A stretch of DNA of 25,068 nucleotides from a virus. Its lineage: Duplodnaviria > Heunggongvirae > Uroviricota > Caudoviricetes. Where the stretch lies: positions 1 through 25,068 of IMG/VR virus record IMGVR_UViG_3300032250_000269. The stretch is one strand, 5' to 3'. The notes beneath the pieces are model-generated. The model did no database searches. It saw only the letters and a program-made list of their open reading frames with translations, and was not told where the DNA came from. A program made the translations under genes and the position numbers. Shown piece after piece: positions 5,354 through 21,129 of the stretch. The first letter of the stretch is position 1; every line of letters begins with the position of its first letter.

Positions 5354-5917
5354 ATGAATTATAGAAATGATCTAACAGCAGAATATGTTAAAGAATGTTT
5401 GGAATATAATCCTGAAACGGGATTGCTCAAGTGGAAAGAAAGACCATTAGAACATTTTAAAAGTGAGAATGATTGTAAGAGATGGAATTCAAAGTATGCA
5501 AATAAAAAAGCTGGAACGTTATCTTCTTCTGGATATATTGATATAAAAATTAGTAGTGTAATTTATCGAGCACATCGAATTGCGTGGTTAATTTTTTATG
5601 GGAAATGGCCAAAAGATCAAATTGATCATAATGATGGTGAACGCTCTAACAATAAAATTGACAATCTAAGTGATGTGCCAAACTCTATAAATGGAAAAAA
5701 TCAAGCAATTAGAATTGATAACAATACTGGTCATGTGGGAGTTAAAAAAACAATACATGCTACATGGAGAGCATCTATTATGGTTGACGGAATTGCATAT
5801 GATCTTGGAACACATAAAAATATAGAAGAAGCAATAAAAGCACGTAAAGAAGCTGAAATAAAGCATAATTTTCATGCTAATCACGGTAGAAAATCATCGA
5901 CTAAAAAAGCTGCTTGA
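5354..5917 (+). CDS. Free-standing HNH homing endonuclease with C-terminal AP2-like DNA-binding domain
   Basis: YRAHRIAW; QIDHNDGERSNNKIDNL (HNH); NTGHVGV...WRASI...LGTHKNIEEAIKARKEAE (AP2-like). Confidence 0.9.
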   Translation: MNYRNDLTAEYVKECLEYNPETGLLKWKERPLEHFKSENDCKRWNSKYANKKAGTLSSSGYIDIKISSVIYRAHRIAWLIFYGKWPKDQIDHNDGERSNNKIDNLSDVPNSINGKNQAIRIDNNTGHVGVKKTIHATWRASIMVDGIAYDLGTHKNIEEAIKARKEAEIKHNFHANHGRKSSTKKAA

Positions 5918-6265: not shown

Positions 6266-6659
6266 GAAGTATTTTAAGATACTTCAGAAAGTAGCTGAAG
6301 CCGTAGAGCCTGTTTCTAGACAGAGACTTTCGGCATGTTTAGTCTACAAGAACGAAATTATTGGGATGGGCTTCAATAAAAAGAAGTCCCATCCCTTTCA
6401 GCGTAAATTCTCCAAGCACGAAGAAGCAATCTATCTCCATGCTGAAATTGACGCAATTAAGAATGCATTGAAGAATGTAGATGCTGAGACTATCAGCAAA
6501 AGCACCCTGTACATCATGCGAGTAAAATATGAAGACATGAACGCCAAACGGTTTGTTCGTGGTCTTTCTAAACCTTGTGAGGGATGTGCACGAGCAATCG
6601 CACAATTTGGAATTAAAAAAGTTTACTATACAACAGAAGAAGGATTTGATTATCTATGA
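6255..6659 (+). CDS. Zn-dependent cytidine/dCMP deaminase-superfamily protein
   Basis: LHAEIDAI and SKPCEGC motifs, C-terminal GIKKVYYT. Start at MACEKYF; the upstream in-frame extension is an overlap with the previous gene. Confidence 0.85.
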   Translation: MACEKYFKILQKVAEAVEPVSRQRLSACLVYKNEIIGMGFNKKKSHPFQRKFSKHEEAIYLHAEIDAIKNALKNVDAETISKSTLYIMRVKYEDMNAKRFVRGLSKPCEGCARAIAQFGIKKVYYTTEEGFDYL

Positions 6660-7291
6660 CACCTAAGAGTAGAAGCATTCCAGTAGAATATATTAAGCAA
6701 TGTTTTGAGTATCGTGAAGAAGAAGTTGATGGAGTTCTTCAAGGAAACGTATATTGGAAATATCGTGAAGATATGCCAAAATGGTGGAATACAAAATTTG
6801 CTGGTAAAAAAGTTGGTAATATAAATGGTAGAGGTTATTATAGTACAATTTTGGTGTATAATGGTTTTAGGTGCTGTTTATCAAATCACATAATTGTATG
6901 GATTATTAATAAGGGATGTTATCCAATCAATGTAATTGATCATATTGACCGTAACAAAATTAATAACCTTATTGTAAATTTAGACGATTGTTTACAAGAA
7001 GATAATGCTAATAATAGAGGCGCAAACTCAAATTCTAGTAGTCATTTTCGTGGAGTTTCTTTTATAACAAGACGAAATAAATGGTATGTGCAAATTGAAG
7101 TGAACGAAAAAGGTATTTTCGGCGGATATTTTGATGATGAAATACAATCAGCATTAAAAGCAAATAAACTTATTATTGAAAACTTTGGACATACTAAAAA
7201 CCTTTATCAAAACGACATAAGTATGGGATACACCAATCCACAATATCCAAACAAGCCTAGAGGATGGGTTCCAGAAGAGGTAGCATCATGA
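6656..7291 (+). CDS. Free-standing HNH homing endonuclease with AP2-like domain
   Basis: VIDHIDRNKINNLIVNL (HNH); SSHFRGVSF...KWYVQI...GGYFDDEIQSA (AP2-like); ATGA overlaps at both ends. Confidence 0.88.
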   Translation: MTPKSRSIPVEYIKQCFEYREEEVDGVLQGNVYWKYREDMPKWWNTKFAGKKVGNINGRGYYSTILVYNGFRCCLSNHIIVWIINKGCYPINVIDHIDRNKINNLIVNLDDCLQEDNANNRGANSNSSSHFRGVSFITRRNKWYVQIEVNEKGIFGGYFDDEIQSALKANKLIIENFGHTKNLYQNDISMGYTNPQYPNKPRGWVPEEVAS

Positions 7292-13133: not shown

Positions 13134-13141
13134 TATAAATA
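13134..13141 (+). promoter_or_regulatory. T4-type late promoter
   Basis: Exact TATAAATA immediately after the terminator. Confidence 0.85.
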
Positions 13142-13167: not shown

Positions 13168-13590
13168 ATGACTAATTGGATAAAAAACAAGTTTGAGAAT
13201 GAAATTAAAAGTTTCATGGTTATTACAGATAAAGTTGTGTCTAATATAAGTCAAAAAGAGATTAAAAAGAAGATTGTTGATCAGATGATTGACGATTTAA
13301 AAAAGAAATATAACTCTAAAAATCTTCAAGACCTTAGACCAATTACATGGAGAAGTCTTGAAGGAAGCCAATCGTGGAACGCAGACACCATGGTGAATAT
13401 ACAAAAATCTCTTAGAAATGCAGATGAAATTAAAAAAATATATCAATCAATTTATAATATGGTATCCAACAAATCAGTTAATGCTCCAATCATCATGATG
13501 CAGAATAATATTGGTATGCTCATATCAGGAGAGCATACTCTTATGGCATGTAGACTTTTAAACATTCAACCAAAGGTAATAATGATATGA
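13168..13590 (+). CDS. Hypothetical protein with degenerate ParB/Srx-like C-terminus
   Basis: ATG 13168 after GAGGA (13147 is too close to the promoter). APIIM...MLISGEHTLMAC.LL resembles ParB-N PIIV...DGxHRxxA. Confidence 0.6.
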   Translation: MTNWIKNKFENEIKSFMVITDKVVSNISQKEIKKKIVDQMIDDLKKKYNSKNLQDLRPITWRSLEGSQSWNADTMVNIQKSLRNADEIKKIYQSIYNMVSNKSVNAPIIMMQNNIGMLISGEHTLMACRLLNIQPKVIMI

Positions 13591-14021
13591 AAACCCTTAA
13601 ACAATTTCTAGACGAAGCTGAAACAACAAAGGTAACTATGTTTAATCGTGATTTGGATAATGATGAAATTGAAACGGGTGCTACTGTCAGTAGATATGGT
13701 AGACCAATGGAACGAGAGCATTCACAGGATAAAGTGAAGATGATACCATTGAATAGAACGATTCGTCACGAGACACCAGAAAAAACAGCACGTAATACAG
13801 CTACACCTGAAAGTGAAAAAGCAGTACAGGGTATTATGTCTGATATCAAGAAGAAAAAGGATATTGAGCCGATTCTAGTGCGTAGGAAAAAAGGTGGTAC
13901 TTATCAAATAATGGATGGTCATCATCGTCTTGAAGCACATCTGAGAATGGGATTAAGACATATTCCGGCGAGAGTAATAGACGCTAAGAATGTCAAATAT
14001 GATGGCACTGAAGAGAAATAA
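13587..14021 (+). CDS. ParB/Srx-like domain protein with a capsid-targeting-sequence-like N-terminus
   Basis: IEPILVRR...YQIMDGHHRLEAHLRMGLRHIPARV; N-terminus MKTLKQFLDEA. Confidence 0.8.
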   Translation: MKTLKQFLDEAETTKVTMFNRDLDNDEIETGATVSRYGRPMEREHSQDKVKMIPLNRTIRHETPEKTARNTATPESEKAVQGIMSDIKKKKDIEPILVRRKKGGTYQIMDGHHRLEAHLRMGLRHIPARVIDAKNVKYDGTEEK

Positions 14022-15901: not shown

Positions 15902-16195
15902 ATGAAAACACTAAAAAATTTCATTTCAGAATGTGTTCTTACAGAACGTGGTGAAGACGATAAAGGACATTATCGTGCAACAGAAGATGGTGCTGGTCTT
16001 ACAAAGAAGGGCGCAGAACACTTTGGTATAAAGACTGCTGTAACAAGAAAGAATGTCGATCCTGACTCTGAGGCAGGAAAACGCCGTAAGTCATTCTGTG
16101 CAAGAATGTCTGGTATGCCCGGTCCTATGAAAGATGAAAAAGGTCGTCCTACACGTAAGGCAATGTCTCTAAAAAGATGGCGTTGTAAAGTTTAA
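15902..16195 (+). CDS. Small basic protein with a capsid-targeting-sequence-like N-terminus
   Basis: Starts MKTLKNFISE; GAGLTKKG, RRKSFCARMSG and SLKRWRC motifs (recalled as DUF6321-like, unverified). Confidence 0.75.
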   Translation: MKTLKNFISECVLTERGEDDKGHYRATEDGAGLTKKGAEHFGIKTAVTRKNVDPDSEAGKRRKSFCARMSGMPGPMKDEKGRPTRKAMSLKRWRCKV

Positions 16196-16199
16196 AAAG

Positions 16200-16207
16200 T
16201 ATAAATA
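16200..16207 (+). promoter_or_regulatory. T4-type late promoter
   Basis: Exact intergenic TATAAATA. Confidence 0.85.
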
Positions 16208-16267
16208 GAAGGTGGTTAAGGCTAAGGCAAACACCCATTTAAACAGATAAGTCCAAGGAAAACTCTG

Positions 16268-16372
16268 ATGGAAATAATAAAAGTAACGCCCTACAACAAA
16301 ATTTCTTCTCCCAATCTAGATGCAGTTGTCGGAGAAATGCGTGTTGCTTTAGTCTTAATCAACGGAATTTAA
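16268..16372 (+). CDS. Small ORF (34 aa) below the ORF-track cutoff
   Basis: MEIIKVTPYNKISSPNLDAVVGEMRVALVLINGI*; AAGGAA RBS 7 nt upstream; downstream of a late promoter. Confidence 0.45.
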   Translation: MEIIKVTPYNKISSPNLDAVVGEMRVALVLINGI

Positions 16373-16379
16373 TAAGAGG

Positions 16380-16409
16380 GCTTCTTGTGTTTTGCAAGAG
16401 GCTTTTTTT
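16380..16409 (+). terminator. Probable intrinsic terminator
   Basis: GCTTCTTGT / GCAAGAGGC stem (two G-U pairs) followed by T7. Confidence 0.65.
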
Positions 16410-16425
16410 GTATATAGAGGAAAAT

Positions 16426-18357
16426 ATGAACACACCTGAAAACATTAGAAATAAAGCATATAGTGCAGCCCGTCAACTCGTGAGAAATCGTCTTGCTGAG
16501 AACGCTGGCACTGCTTATGAAAATCTTGACCCAACTGAAAAAAAGGGAATTGATAGAGCCGTGGATATAAGAGAAGCTACTATTAAAAAGATCGCACTCA
16601 AGTTAATTCCGCAGATGATCAGCCGTAGTTCTTCAGAAAAAAGAGAATTCAACGAATCACTTAATGAAAAGTTTGAGAAAGCAATCAAGCCTTTAAAGAA
16701 AAAAGAAGAAAAGGGCGCTGCAAAGTCTCCACATATTGAAATTCACAACACATTTGGTGAAGAAGTTGCATTAAACAGTGCAGTATATAAAGCACTCATT
16801 AAGAAATCTAATAGTTCTGGTGTCGATGTTGATATTCTTGGTGAAGTATATAATCGTGGTATGAATGTATGGAATGAAAATACAAACGTATCCCAACAAC
16901 AATATGCATTTGCTCGTGTGAACTCATTTATCAATCAGGGCAAGACATATTTTAAAGAGGATTCAGATTTGGCAGAAGAAATTAAAACTCCTTCTAGAAG
17001 AAAGACTAAAAGGTTTATTGAAACAGAGCATGATGTAAAGGCTGGTCAGACATATGGAGGTAAACCATATTCAAGTCATCCAAAAATGGTAGAAAGAAAT
17101 ATTAAGAAATTTTTTGGTACTAAAGGAAAAGCAAGACACGCAAGAATTGCTGCACTTCTACACGATGTAGTAGAAGATACTCCTACTACACCTGAAGCTC
17201 TTCTTAAGAAGGGGCACCATCCTGACATAGTTAAAGCAGTTCAGCTTTTAAGTAAAGACAAAACAAAATCATACGAAGAGAATATTGAAAATATTGCAAG
17301 TGGAACTTCTGACGCACATCATATAGCTAAGATGGTTAAGTATGCCGACAATTATGCAAACTTTAGTGCTAAACCAAAGCCTGAGTGGGATAATGAAAGA
17401 ACCGCCAAGCAAAAGCAAAAATATTACGATAGTATGGTGAGATTAGGTCGTGAGCTAGGTGTCAACCATCACGAAAAAATTAAAGACATGCATAATGGCG
17501 TTAATATAACTGAAGAAATAAAACTTGATGAAGAAAGTGAAACCTTCAAAAAAGGCGATAGAGTTTTTCTAAAAACAAAAACTTTCTCAAACTCCCCACA
17601 CAGCGGTACAGTCATAAAAGTCACTCCTACACACGTTCATCTTAGAACTTTAGGTGGCACTGGATTATATAAGGCACCACACTCTTCAGTAACTAAAGAC
17701 AGCAAGAAATCACATCTTCATATGACTTATGGTAATAAGAATGAAGAAGTAGATAAATCTAAGCCATCAAACCGTGAATATGGTACTAATAAATTAAATA
17801 AGATTTATAAGAAAGATACTCCCGGTCAGAATCTAGACGAATCTTTCAACATGGCATTTGACTATCAAGGAAAGCCAATAGTGGCACCTACAGCACACGA
17901 GCTAATGATGAAGACACAGGGTGGGTTTGCTCATCACAATGACGTACAGGACGTTATGAACGTCAAGTCGATCAAGGAACAAATTGAAAAGGCTTTTCAG
18001 GCTACCATTCTTGAAGAAGACAAAGATAAACTATCTATCTCTTTAGACAGTTTGATCAACATGGTCAATGAAGCATTCACTACTATTGCAAGCATCAAGT
18101 CATCAAACATTGAACGTGATGCATGGTCACAGGCTGAAATCCTTAAGCTAGAACGTTACATTGAATCAGTTGCTGCATACATCAACAATATGGATGAAAC
18201 TGTTAGAAGTGGTGAAGCTCATGGAGAAGTTGTTCCTGCACACACAATCGTAAGTCAAAAAACAGGACAATCAATTTCCATTCCTGCTAAGACAAAAATG
18301 GTCAAGACAAATAAAGTTGTTCTTCATCCATATGATAATCCATTTGATGGCAAATAA
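16426..18357 (+). CDS. Large modular protein with a SpoT/Mesh1-type HD hydrolase domain, a DUF5824-like module and an SH3/KOW-like module
   Basis: ATG 16426 after GAGGA. PYSSHP, AALLHDVVEDT, VKAVQLLS, MVKYADNYAN (HD); ILGEVYNRG...YAFARVNSF; FKKGDRV..GTVIKV. Confidence 0.8.
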   Translation: MNTPENIRNKAYSAARQLVRNRLAENAGTAYENLDPTEKKGIDRAVDIREATIKKIALKLIPQMISRSSSEKREFNESLNEKFEKAIKPLKKKEEKGAAKSPHIEIHNTFGEEVALNSAVYKALIKKSNSSGVDVDILGEVYNRGMNVWNENTNVSQQQYAFARVNSFINQGKTYFKEDSDLAEEIKTPSRRKTKRFIETEHDVKAGQTYGGKPYSSHPKMVERNIKKFFGTKGKARHARIAALLHDVVEDTPTTPEALLKKGHHPDIVKAVQLLSKDKTKSYEENIENIASGTSDAHHIAKMVKYADNYANFSAKPKPEWDNERTAKQKQKYYDSMVRLGRELGVNHHEKIKDMHNGVNITEEIKLDEESETFKKGDRVFLKTKTFSNSPHSGTVIKVTPTHVHLRTLGGTGLYKAPHSSVTKDSKKSHLHMTYGNKNEEVDKSKPSNREYGTNKLNKIYKKDTPGQNLDESFNMAFDYQGKPIVAPTAHELMMKTQGGFAHHNDVQDVMNVKSIKEQIEKAFQATILEEDKDKLSISLDSLINMVNEAFTTIASIKSSNIERDAWSQAEILKLERYIESVAAYINNMDETVRSGEAHGEVVPAHTIVSQKTGQSISIPAKTKMVKTNKVVLHPYDNPFDGK

Positions 18358-18401: not shown

Positions 18402-18845
18402 ATGGATGAACTAATTGAACAAATGAAAAAACTATTGGCTGACGTGTATGCTTATGGTCTAAAGGCACAGAATTTTCATTGGAATGTTGAAGGGCCAGAT
18501 TTTATTCAGTATCACGGTCTTTTTTCGGATGTATATCAAAAAGCTGCTGGTGATGTGGATAAAGTTGCAGAACATATTCGTGCACTAGATGCCTATGCAC
18601 CAGCTTCATTTAGTCGTTTTCAAGAACTAACATCAATTAAAGATGAGACTACAATTCCAATCGCAATTGAAATGGTCAATCGTCTCTATCAAGATAACAT
18701 GAAGGTTCTTACTACTGTTAAGACTGCTTGTGCAACTGCTGAAGAACTAAAGCAACACGGGGTTCTTAATTTCCTAGAAGGTCTTATTGACGAATATGAA
18801 AAACAAGCATGGATGCTTCGTTCAACTGTAAAGAGAACACACTAA
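18402..18845 (+). CDS. dps: Dps-like ferritin-family protein
   Basis: KAQNFHWNVEGPDFIQYHGLF..VY.....DVDKVAEHIRAL ferroxidase signature; C-terminal EKQAWML. Confidence 0.9.
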   Translation: MDELIEQMKKLLADVYAYGLKAQNFHWNVEGPDFIQYHGLFSDVYQKAAGDVDKVAEHIRALDAYAPASFSRFQELTSIKDETTIPIAIEMVNRLYQDNMKVLTTVKTACATAEELKQHGVLNFLEGLIDEYEKQAWMLRSTVKRTH

Positions 18846-19488: not shown

Positions 19489-21129
19489 ATGATTAAGAAT
19501 AACAATAATTTTGACAGCCTATCAAAAAATCTTTTGAATGACGTTCGTGCCGTTATGGAAGGCAAGAAGAGTTGCAGTAAAGATTGCAAGTGTGAAAAGT
19601 GCGAAACAGAAGAAAAGGGCGAAGTTAAGGAAGCCAAGAAGATGAAGGGTGAAGACCCTTGTTGGAAGGGTTATGAGATGGTTGGCACTAAAAAGGGTAA
19701 AGGCGGCAAGGAAGTTCCTAACTGTGTACCAGAAGAAGCAGAGGTCAAAGCTGAAGCTTATGATGAGACTGCTGTAAACAAGGCAATCAAGTCCTCACGT
19801 CAAAAGATCGGTGGTAGAGAAGCAAAGAAAATTCATGCTCTCCTAAAGGGTTCTTCTGGTTATAAGCCAAAGTGGACAAAAGATGAAGCTGATGCACACA
19901 CTGCTAAGGTGAAGGCAGACAATAAGGGTGTCAAGGAAGAAACTGAAGAGCTTGATGAGATTTCACAGAAGCTTGCTACAGACTATTTTCATGCAAAACA
20001 AGACAAGGCACGTAAGGATTTCATGCGTGGTAGAGCAACTAACAAGACAGGTGTTATGCTTGCTAAGAAAAAGATTGAAGGTACTGCAAAGGTTCCTGCT
20101 ACCAATGAAGAAGTAGAGGTTGTTGAGGCTAAAGAAAGCCCAATTGCTGGTACAAGAAAAATTTCTGTGCATCAAGGTGAAAATGGTCATCATGCAGAAA
20201 TTCGTTATAATCCAGAATATAAAGAGTATCAAGTTCACCACTATGAAAATGGTAAGCACATGGGTGAAGGTCCAGTGTCTTATCATGACACAAAGGCTGA
20301 TGCCAAGGAAACTGCTGAGTACGAAATAAAGCACTATCGTCCTAAGAATGGTTCTCTTCATAAAGAAAGCGTTGAAATTAACGAAGAAGTTGATTTTGCT
20401 AAGGTAAGAAAGCAGTTTGACAGAAACGAAGACAGAAACGAACATTCAAAGAATGCTGTTCTTATTGCTAAGCATTGTGGATCAGAAGTAGATCACAAAG
20501 AAGCCAAGGACATTATGAAGAAGCACAATGAGCTTGGCCATCTTGCTCCTTCTCTTATGGCTCGTCGTTCTGCTCTTTATGATAAGCTAAAGAAGACTGA
20601 CAACTATAAGAAGATTTTTCCTGAAGAAAACGTTAAGGAAGAACTTATTGGTAAGCAAAAGAACATTGACAAAAATAATAATGGAAAACTTGACAAGCAA
20701 GATTTTGAAATGCTTCGTAAGAGCAAGGGTAAGTGGAAGTCTTCTTCATATAAGAATTCTGATGGTAAATGGGCTAGCAAAGATGTTAAAGAAGAAACCC
20801 TTGAGGAAAAATTAAATCCTTCAATGGGCAGTGCTAAATACATCGATGATTTTATTAAATCAAAAGACCCACGTTTTGAAGGTAAGACTAAAAAAGAGCG
20901 TATTAAAATGGCACTAGGTGCTTATTATTCTGCTAAGAATGAAGAAGTTGAACAAGTTGATGAAGCTTATGGTGATAAAAGAGATTATAAACCACATCGT
21001 ATTAGTGTAAATGGTAAATATGTTGCTACTACAACATGGGCCAAAGATGCTAGGGAAGCAGAGAGAAGATTTCTTAAGCAACATCCAGATTTTAGAAGCG
21101 CAAGAATAACAGTCGCTAGAGAACCCTAA
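19489..21129 (+). CDS. Lys/Glu-rich modular protein, candidate head-internal polyprotein
   Basis: ATG 19489 after GGAG. About eight basic modules separated by acidic linkers (VKEA, VKEETEELDE, EEVEVVEA, ESVEINEE, EENVKEE, VKEETLEE, EEVEQVDEA). Confidence 0.8.
   Translation: MIKNNNNFDSLSKNLLNDVRAVMEGKKSCSKDCKCEKCETEEKGEVKEAKKMKGEDPCWKGYEMVGTKKGKGGKEVPNCVPEEAEVKAEAYDETAVNKAIKSSRQKIGGREAKKIHALLKGSSGYKPKWTKDEADAHTAKVKADNKGVKEETEELDEISQKLATDYFHAKQDKARKDFMRGRATNKTGVMLAKKKIEGTAKVPATNEEVEVVEAKESPIAGTRKISVHQGENGHHAEIRYNPEYKEYQVHHYENGKHMGEGPVSYHDTKADAKETAEYEIKHYRPKNGSLHKESVEINEEVDFAKVRKQFDRNEDRNEHSKNAVLIAKHCGSEVDHKEAKDIMKKHNELGHLAPSLMARRSALYDKLKKTDNYKKIFPEENVKEELIGKQKNIDKNNNGKLDKQDFEMLRKSKGKWKSSSYKNSDGKWASKDVKEETLEEKLNPSMGSAKYIDDFIKSKDPRFEGKTKKERIKMALGAYYSAKNEEVEQVDEAYGDKRDYKPHRISVNGKYVATTTWAKDAREAERRFLKQHPDFRSARITVAREP

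Follow-up and report, generated by a model that had tools for sequence, protein, structure and literature searches.

An RSH-type HD hydrolase domain as an optional, movable module of a multi-domain protein in a T4-like phage: a candidate capsid cargo

Small alarmone hydrolases (SAHs) are known as stand-alone enzymes, among them Aph1 (7SMG), PaSAH (6YVC/6Z3N), Mesh1 (3NR1/5VXA), RelH and PaSpo of Salmonella phage SSU5. Phage-encoded stand-alone SAHs have been described in the case of PaSpo (PMC9712102), of phage Adele (PMC12846349) and of a jumbo-phage 'HD-alarmone PDEase' (PMC7824862), and Aph1 is encoded in a prophage (PMC10083569). Here we describe a domain of the same RelA/SpoT (RSH) type, with the same fold, the same H/HD/ED/D/N set and a similar size, which in contrast to these enzymes is an internal module, or cassette, of a 643-residue protein. 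It is encoded at 16981-17517 (+ strand) of a 25,068-nt stretch of viral DNA (IMG/VR record IMGVR_UViG_3300032250_000269; hereafter, the window), which makes up the initial 25 kb of a 99.4-kb IMG/VR fragment of a T4-like myovirus with an estimated completeness of 56%.

Other described systems resemble this locus in part. In T4, the prohead protease gp21 cleaves after Glu in L/I-x-E, and residues 1-10 of IPIII form a capsid-targeting sequence (CTS) (PMC9026906); the CTS-loaded, gp21-trimmed cargo proteins IPI, IPII, IPIII and Alt have been described (PMC9026906, PMC3012670). Our locus shares with them the T4-like phage background, late-promoter genes and L/I-x-E sites, and sister HD proteins as well as neighbour genes bear MKTxxxF(L/I)xE or MRAxEF(I/L)xE leaders, whereas the 643-residue protein does not. 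Moreover, T4 cargo consists of single effectors trimmed at their ends, while here one chain would give rise to several modules, and the consensus linker is much longer. In polyvalent proteins (Iyer et al. 2017, PMC5512222), many unrelated effector-type domains similarly share a chain, in variable architectures, and delivery together with the DNA, along with processing, has been proposed for them. However, none of their hallmark domains was detected by Pfam in the 643-residue protein, whose gene is not beside portal, MuF or terminase, and in the text searched RelA/SpoT synthetase domains are reported, but neither hydrolases nor an EETELDE-type linker. In the giant phages phiKZ, 201phi2-1 and SPN3US, a protease related to gp21 cleaves head proteins (ejection and inner-body proteins) after Glu in a short motif, and can do so at several positions (PMC9026906), but these phages use S/A-x-E and what is cleaved there is not a chain of small, exchangeable enzyme modules. 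An earlier note on this DNA had stated that no comparable arrangement was known; phage SAHs, CTS cargo and polyvalent proteins are in fact each known, and it is their combination that has not been described. As far as searched, this applies to an RSH hydrolase as an internal swappable module, to a family-wide EETELDE-type linker, and to the presence in one phage of a solo Aph1-type copy and a differently specified cassette copy.

The enclosing open reading frame (ORF) of the modular gene spans GTG 16387 to 18357. The GTG was considered as a start and rejected, as it lies inside a terminator hairpin, whereas ATG 16426 (MNTPEN...) is preceded by the ribosome-binding site GAGGAAAAT. With this start the protein has 643 residues and the HD stretch corresponds to residues 186-364. 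The gene and its parts are:

16426-18357, + strand: gene for the modular protein, 643 residues, 72.5 kDa, pI 9.2; from the ORF list, with 265 homologues.
16426-16632, + strand: basic helical N-terminal core, residues 1-69, pI 10.0; kept in about 100 homologues and in phiM12 gp159, with helices in the full-length model.
16744-16977, + strand: DUF5824 module, residues 107-184, ending in a conserved D-x-D-L-A-E; Pfam PF19141, E 7e-7.
16969-16977, + strand: candidate cut site L-A-E, residues 182-184, on the N-terminal side of the cassette; low predicted local distance difference test score (pLDDT), L-x-E retained there in close homologues.
16981-17517, + strand: RSH-type HD hydrolase cassette, residues 186-364, 20.4 kDa, pI 9.6; assigned by profile, fold and alignment matches.
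17506-17532, + strand: acidic linker I-T-E-E-I-K-L-D-E, residues 361-369, with two candidate cut sites; fits the family linker motif, model disordered from residue 356.
17533-17748, + strand: small beta-rich mobile module, residues 370-441; three strands in the model, at low confidence.
17749-18354, + strand: C-terminal core, residues 442-643; 76-86% identity across 27 homologues.

Translation of 16981-17517 yielded 179 residues containing PYSSHP, AALLHDVVEDT and VKYADNYAN, with LAEE before and IKLDEE after, in exact agreement with the earlier note, which had read these motifs as a complete HD fold of the SpoT/Mesh1/SAH type. Within the 643-residue protein Pfam detected DUF5824 and HD only, and for the module itself the Pfam HD profile scored above its cut-off (E 1.9e-6), together with TIGR00691 spoT_relA in its N-terminal hydrolase region (E 8.6e-9) and phrog_990 'metal-dependent phosphohydrolase' (E 6e-33). 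Pfam HD_4 gave 17.1 bits with the query alone, against a cut-off of 27.2, while 45 of the 69 aligned relatives matched it at E <= 0.001 (best 2.3e-13). All matches in a single-sequence search of PDB sequences were RSH-type hydrolases, and a profile built from the 69 relatives retrieved Aph1 (7SMG, 8.5e-26) and Rel (6e-22), then RelA, SpoT, Lmo0812, Mesh1 and SAH. Structural comparison pointed the same way: the AlphaFold model of the module reached a pLDDT of 94.8, its best 43 Foldseek matches in the PDB were all RSH-type hydrolases, and VIA, an aligner independent of Foldseek, gave Z scores of 19.3 for PaSAH and 18.5 for both Aph1 and Mesh1, whereas YpgQ (12.6) and DatZ (9.0), which represent other HD families, scored well below these. 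A best match to an unrelated HD family, which the earlier note had named as speaking against its reading, was thus not obtained.

Residues H33, H61, D62, E65, D66, K120 and D123 of the module (H218, H246, D247, E250, D251, K305 and D308 of the protein) were invariant in the 69 relatives (alignment A2), and N127 and Y148 (N312 and Y333 of the protein) nearly so, at 90% or more. From what is known of Rel and Mesh1, we take the invariant set and N127 to make up the RSH hydrolase site, with its metal ligands, Glu-Asp pair and Asn. Sequence comparison and structural modelling together confirm 16981-17517 as a predicted complete RSH-type HD hydrolase domain, with an intact active site and all catalytic residues present.

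We explored the behaviour of this domain across the 265 homologues of the modular protein found in 5.8 billion proteins, using the best 120 for BLAST comparison. Between the query and these 120, the N-terminal core (residues 1-185, including DUF5824) and the C-terminal core (about 440-643) were conserved and the middle was variable. The HD module was present in 17 of the 120 overall; when only the 28 homologues with cores 76-91% identical to the query were considered, nine carried it and 19 did not, and in homologues lacking it the slot was filled by other modules, such as a DUF6321-like unit. Its position and neighbours also varied: the small beta-rich module, which follows HD in the query, precedes it in two homologues (P0004 and P0005), and in a third (P0035) the HD module is N-terminal to the core. 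An exhaustive HMMER search with the module alone against 1.84 billion cluster representatives returned 1807 relatives, of which the nearest HD representatives (about 55) all sat within proteins 200-1392 residues long, in positions that varied, while distant ones were solo proteins of about 150 residues. The earlier note had proposed checking whether relatives lack or swap the module. They do both, in backbones nearly identical to the query, and judged from these comparisons of sequences the HD domain is a true optional, movable cassette in a modular protein.

Modules of this family are separated by an acidic linker, [ED]-x-[EQDKT]-[LIV]-[DEGN]-E, typically (N/K)EE(T/V)(E/Q)(L/I)DE, which occurred 140 times in the 120 homologues versus 15.4 +/- 4 times in shuffled sequences, always between modules and followed by at least 15 different module starts. 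One gene (P0035, locus L019) contains five linkers whose synonymous codons differ (ACA/ACC/ACT, CTA/CTT/CTC, GAC/GAT and GAA/GAG) while the peptide is kept, which argues that the peptide itself, rather than a DNA recombination signal, is conserved and selected. Of 49 distinct proteins with an embedded HD module, 37 had [LI]xE no more than 20 residues upstream of the module, and 24 of 53 had it no more than 23 residues downstream; random windows drawn from these proteins gave a background of 19%. The full-length model has pLDDT values below 50 at residues 183-186 and from residue 356 on, so that both borders of the cassette are predicted to be flexible. The C-terminal core, modelled as a three-helix bundle with a beta tail and giving generic three-helix-bundle matches only in a fold search, contains a further conserved site, L-D-E↓S-F at residues 470-474, in which E472 and F474 are invariant (alignment A5; here and below, arrows mark the cleavage position or its candidate). 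In cultured phages, the DUF5824 module is also present in Melnitz gp18 and HTVC008M gp130, where it follows an (L/I)DE linker (EEFQLDE↓K and KDIEIDE↓T, respectively), Melnitz gp20 bears a linker of this type as well (KEEIEIDE↓M), and the sole tblastn match of the N-terminal core was gp159 of the phiM12 group, itself upstream of gp61.

The T4 record shows MKTYQEFIAE↓A in ipII and ipIII and MKTFKEF... in ipI, and the gp23 propeptide site reads FLTE↓A in T4, FLSE↓A in Melnitz and FLGE↓I in HTVC008M. This site is thus conserved, and Melnitz and HTVC008M also encode gp21, so that the cleavage specificity is plausibly shared. In the phage studied here, CTS-type N-termini were present on five genes or more, including two in the late operon preceding the modular gene, and several such genes directly follow T4-type late promoter boxes (TATAAATA):

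13587-14021, + strand: ParB-like protein with leader MKTLKQFLDE, closely resembling T4 MKTYQEFIAE.
15902-16195, + strand: DUF6321 protein with leader MKTLKNFISE, closely resembling the same T4 sequence.
76278, 80245 and 87703 of the genome: leaders MKSYTEFLEE, MKTFSAFISE and MKTFRQFREE, respectively, also closely resembling it.

The HD clade itself is associated with leaders of this kind. Most HD-first multi-module proteins with a leader before HD begin with a CTS-type sequence, compared with none of 74 solo HD proteins; leaders on the HD-first proteins read MRAHEFITE, MRAHEFVTE, MRAIEFLQE, MRAQEILQE, MRAREFVKKE, MLLREFLNEE and MNLFEFISS. Three leader-bearing HD proteins could be placed on contigs, and all three lie in T4-like contexts, with DsbA and gp43 nearby. 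In other T4-like phages, the fusion partners of HD behind such leaders (P0157, P0164, P0168 and P0149; loci L020 and L017) include a GH19 lysozyme, a Cu/Zn superoxide dismutase and a HExxH domain recognised by eye.

We propose, with a probability of roughly 45%, that the cassette is an SAH-type cargo module which is cut out in the prohead, injected, and acts on alarmones or on toxSAS-modified tRNA; for cleavage, packaging and injection, which we infer, the odds are roughly even. According to this proposal, a Mn/Mg-dependent 3'-pyrophosphohydrolase of RSH fold would serve as an exchangeable unit of cargo in a late protein of bead-on-a-string build, which T4-like phages would keep between gp41 and gp61. 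The modular protein would enter the prohead, where a gp21-type protease would cut the linkers after Glu in L/I-x-E and free the HD module (about 20 kDa, pI 9.6). The freed module would travel with the DNA into the next cell, and there strip 3'-pyrophosphates from (p)ppGpp, (p)ppApp or toxSAS-modified tRNA before phage gene expression. Put more generally, T4-like phages of natural waters may carry polyproteins of swappable effectors whose EE(T/V)E(L/I)DE linkers are cut in the capsid, injecting an evolvable cocktail that includes an alarmone hydrolase and disarms the stringent response or toxSAS immunity before transcription, a generalization to which we give somewhat less than an even chance.

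The proposal supposes a late protein, as had the earlier note, and the region upstream of the gene bears on this timing:

16200-16207, + strand: T4-type late promoter box TATAAATA, kept in five relatives, 226 nt upstream of ATG 16426.
16208-16412, + strand: conserved structured leader RNA; its 3' part, at about 16374-16412, is an intrinsic terminator hairpin with U7.

Copies of the box were found in the window at 13134, 16200 and 21133, all intergenic and on the coding strand, and in the 99-kb genome 12 times on the + and once on the - strand, nearly always between genes. The stretch from promoter to ATG has 91% nucleotide identity in the five relatives, although the flanking proteins diverge more. 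RNAalifold predicted a 27-bp long-range stem with internal hairpins; the terminator hairpin has a dG of -16.7 (z -4) and the whole leader element a z of -3.5. No Rfam match and no second copy in the genome were found for this RNA, and a 34-codon ORF inside it showed mostly nonsynonymous changes relative to the syntenic relative L005 (alignment A1). This stretch of about 200 nt may act as a late leader, as an attenuator or as a small RNA. The modular nature of the protein and the upstream T4-type late promoter thus agree with the earlier note, but a strong terminator hairpin separates this promoter from the gene, and since its U-run lies only 16 nt before the ATG, the mRNA of the modular gene must read through the terminator. 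Late expression of the gene is, on these sequence features, plausible but conditional.

Besides this terminator, several other points weigh against delivery as capsid cargo. The 643-residue protein lacks a CTS leader, starting with MNTPENIRNK (M(N/S)TPENI in its close clade), and most other homologues start with MDELDE, which contains a linker-like L-D-E and is not a CTS. The C-terminal core had no tblastn homologue in cultured phages. No tblastn match to T4 gp20, gp21, gp22, gp23, gp24, gp67, gp68, Alt or Inh was obtained on the 99-kb fragment, which indicates that the recovered fragment is without the head module; a PF03420 search of the genome found no match but, having found none in control genomes either, is uninformative, and the IMG/VR relatives L007-L009, all short, showed no gp23. 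Bare L/I-x-E occurred 11 times in the 643-residue protein versus 6.4 +/- 2.3 times after shuffling (P ~0.05), barely above chance, so that the LAE and ITE/LDE sites are weak evidence when taken alone; the L/I-x-E motif carries little information, and the acidic linkers might be no more than spacers. The prohead-protease-like sites that the earlier note had placed at the HD borders therefore stand in part: L/I-x-E does lie there in flexible linkers and the family motif is enriched, but in the query by itself such sites are near chance. Finally, the same phage carries a second hydrolase gene:

43429-43869 of the genome, outside the window (L023:1474-1911), + strand: solo RSH-type hydrolase, 146 residues; Aph1 (7SMG), E 5.7e-27.

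This Aph1-type copy is probably expressed early, and with it the phage would not strictly depend on delivery by injection.

The missing CTS leader and the near-chance count of bare L/I-x-E would both be expected if the same enzyme were part of a late cytoplasmic multi-domain protein, never packaged or cut, with linkers serving as flexible spacers, and acted in the producing cell, for instance by keeping alarmone low during assembly or by undoing a capsid-triggered toxSAS (CapRel-type) defence. Consistently with this alternative, the HD-bearing gene is placed between gp41 and gp61, among replication genes and outside the head module; CapRel is triggered by the major capsid protein, a late product, and the phage SAH PaSpo neutralises toxSAS toxins (PMC9712102). 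However, plain spacers would not be expected to preserve an exact consensus of seven residues, hydrophobic at P3 and Glu at P1, over dozens of unrelated junctions and through changes between synonymous codons. Moreover, the same HD clade follows CTS-type leaders elsewhere, and the products of nearby late genes include a virion structural protein and proteins with a CTS. We consider a role confined to the cytoplasm of the producing cell the main alternative, somewhat less probable than the cargo proposal.

The cargo proposal also assumes an alarmone-type substrate, and here the binding-site residues count partly against it. Enzymes specific for (p)ppApp are marked by six Aph1 residues (D24, R96, D116, R119, K133 and Y134), of which the tyrosine Y134 has been proposed to contact the pyrophosphate of the substrate (PMC10083569). 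The cassette keeps two of the six (K and Y), the other four being T, N, S and P, and it has T-Y-G where T. thermophilus Rel has its guanine-contacting Arg-Arg-Ser. In vivo, the module might act on another 3'-(pyro)phosphorylated nucleotide, such as pGp, a nucleotide of immune signalling or, in the manner of Mesh1, NADPH or 3'-phosphoadenosine 5'-phosphosulfate (PAPS). The best fold matches include structures of Mesh1 with NADPH and with PAPS. Neither the guanine contacts of Rel nor the adenine signature of Aph1 is retained, and the cassette family has a conserved motif of its own, GQxYGGxPY. On the other hand, the solved relatives above noise are all alarmone hydrolases, the HDxxED and Asn set is retained, and so are both K133 and Y134 of Aph1, and we regard a non-alarmone substrate as unlikely. 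The solo copy retains all six Aph1 (p)ppApp-specificity residues; with six versus two signature residues kept, this phage would encode two RSH-type hydrolases of different predicted specificity, which suggests that the control of alarmones is important at two or more stages of infection. A CGAATC box is present about 400 nt upstream of the solo hydrolase gene.

That the linkers are DNA-level recombination signals for module shuffling, with the peptide motif as a by-product, is very improbable: modules are clearly shuffled between genomes, and one homologue (P0032) has a copy of the junction sequence GKNINE on either side of its inserted HD module, but the five linkers of a single gene vary synonymously with an unchanged peptide.

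If the cargo proposal is correct, a pre-made alarmone hydrolase arriving with the DNA would add a new way of countering defences and taking over the host. A credible candidate would then also exist for the older idea that phages of starved aquatic bacteria lower (p)ppGpp, a function first assigned to cyanophage MazG, which was later reported to prefer dGTP and dCTP (cited in PMC12846349). Moreover, the linker motif together with CTS leaders would make the injected arsenal of uncultured T4-like phages readable from sequence, and T4-type capsids could be loaded with several proteins on the natural, modular pattern that the linker would offer.

The gene order of the window begins with the C-terminal part of gp43, UvsX and the gp41 helicase, followed by homing endonucleases, sugar and methyl transferases, the ParB-like protein, a virion structural protein and the DUF6321 protein. 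Then come the modular HD-bearing gene, a Dps/ferritin-like gene, a second modular protein, lysis-type genes and the gp61 primase. In the syntenic relative L005, a structural-type gene, a modular protein, a ferritin, a 201-residue gene product and a 609-residue modular protein follow each other in this order, succeeded by a DUF7207 gene and then a gene for 346 residues in the primase position. A literature search on DUF5824, DUF6321 and DUF7207 found no papers. The two genes downstream of the HD-bearing gene that are named above are:

18402-18845, + strand: Dps/ferritin-like gene; Pfam Ferritin, E 2e-22.
19489-21129, + strand: second bead-on-a-string protein, 546 residues, with linkers of the same type as in the 643-residue protein (ETEELDE, plus EEVEVVE, VEINEE and EQVDE).

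The 546-residue protein had no tblastn match in cultured phages; its small modules (e.g. PCWKGY...VPNCVP) recur in homologues of the 643-residue protein. The Dps/ferritin-like gene adjoins the modular or HD-bearing gene in the window as well as in the relatives L005 (11937-12377), L006, L017 (1076-1516) and L018. Further upstream, HNH homing-endonuclease genes (phrog_99) at 5354-5917 and 6656-7291 (both + strand) flank a stretch with a dCMP deaminase-like ORF. Among cultured phages, Melnitz gp16, gp18 and gp20 and HTVC008M gp130 are modular and have CTS-like starts (MKKFSEIIE, MKTLKELL and MLTLINFSKYITE), and this Melnitz/HTVC008M modular set includes a HTVC008M protein annotated as cytidyltransferase, the DUF5824 module and (L/I)DE linkers.

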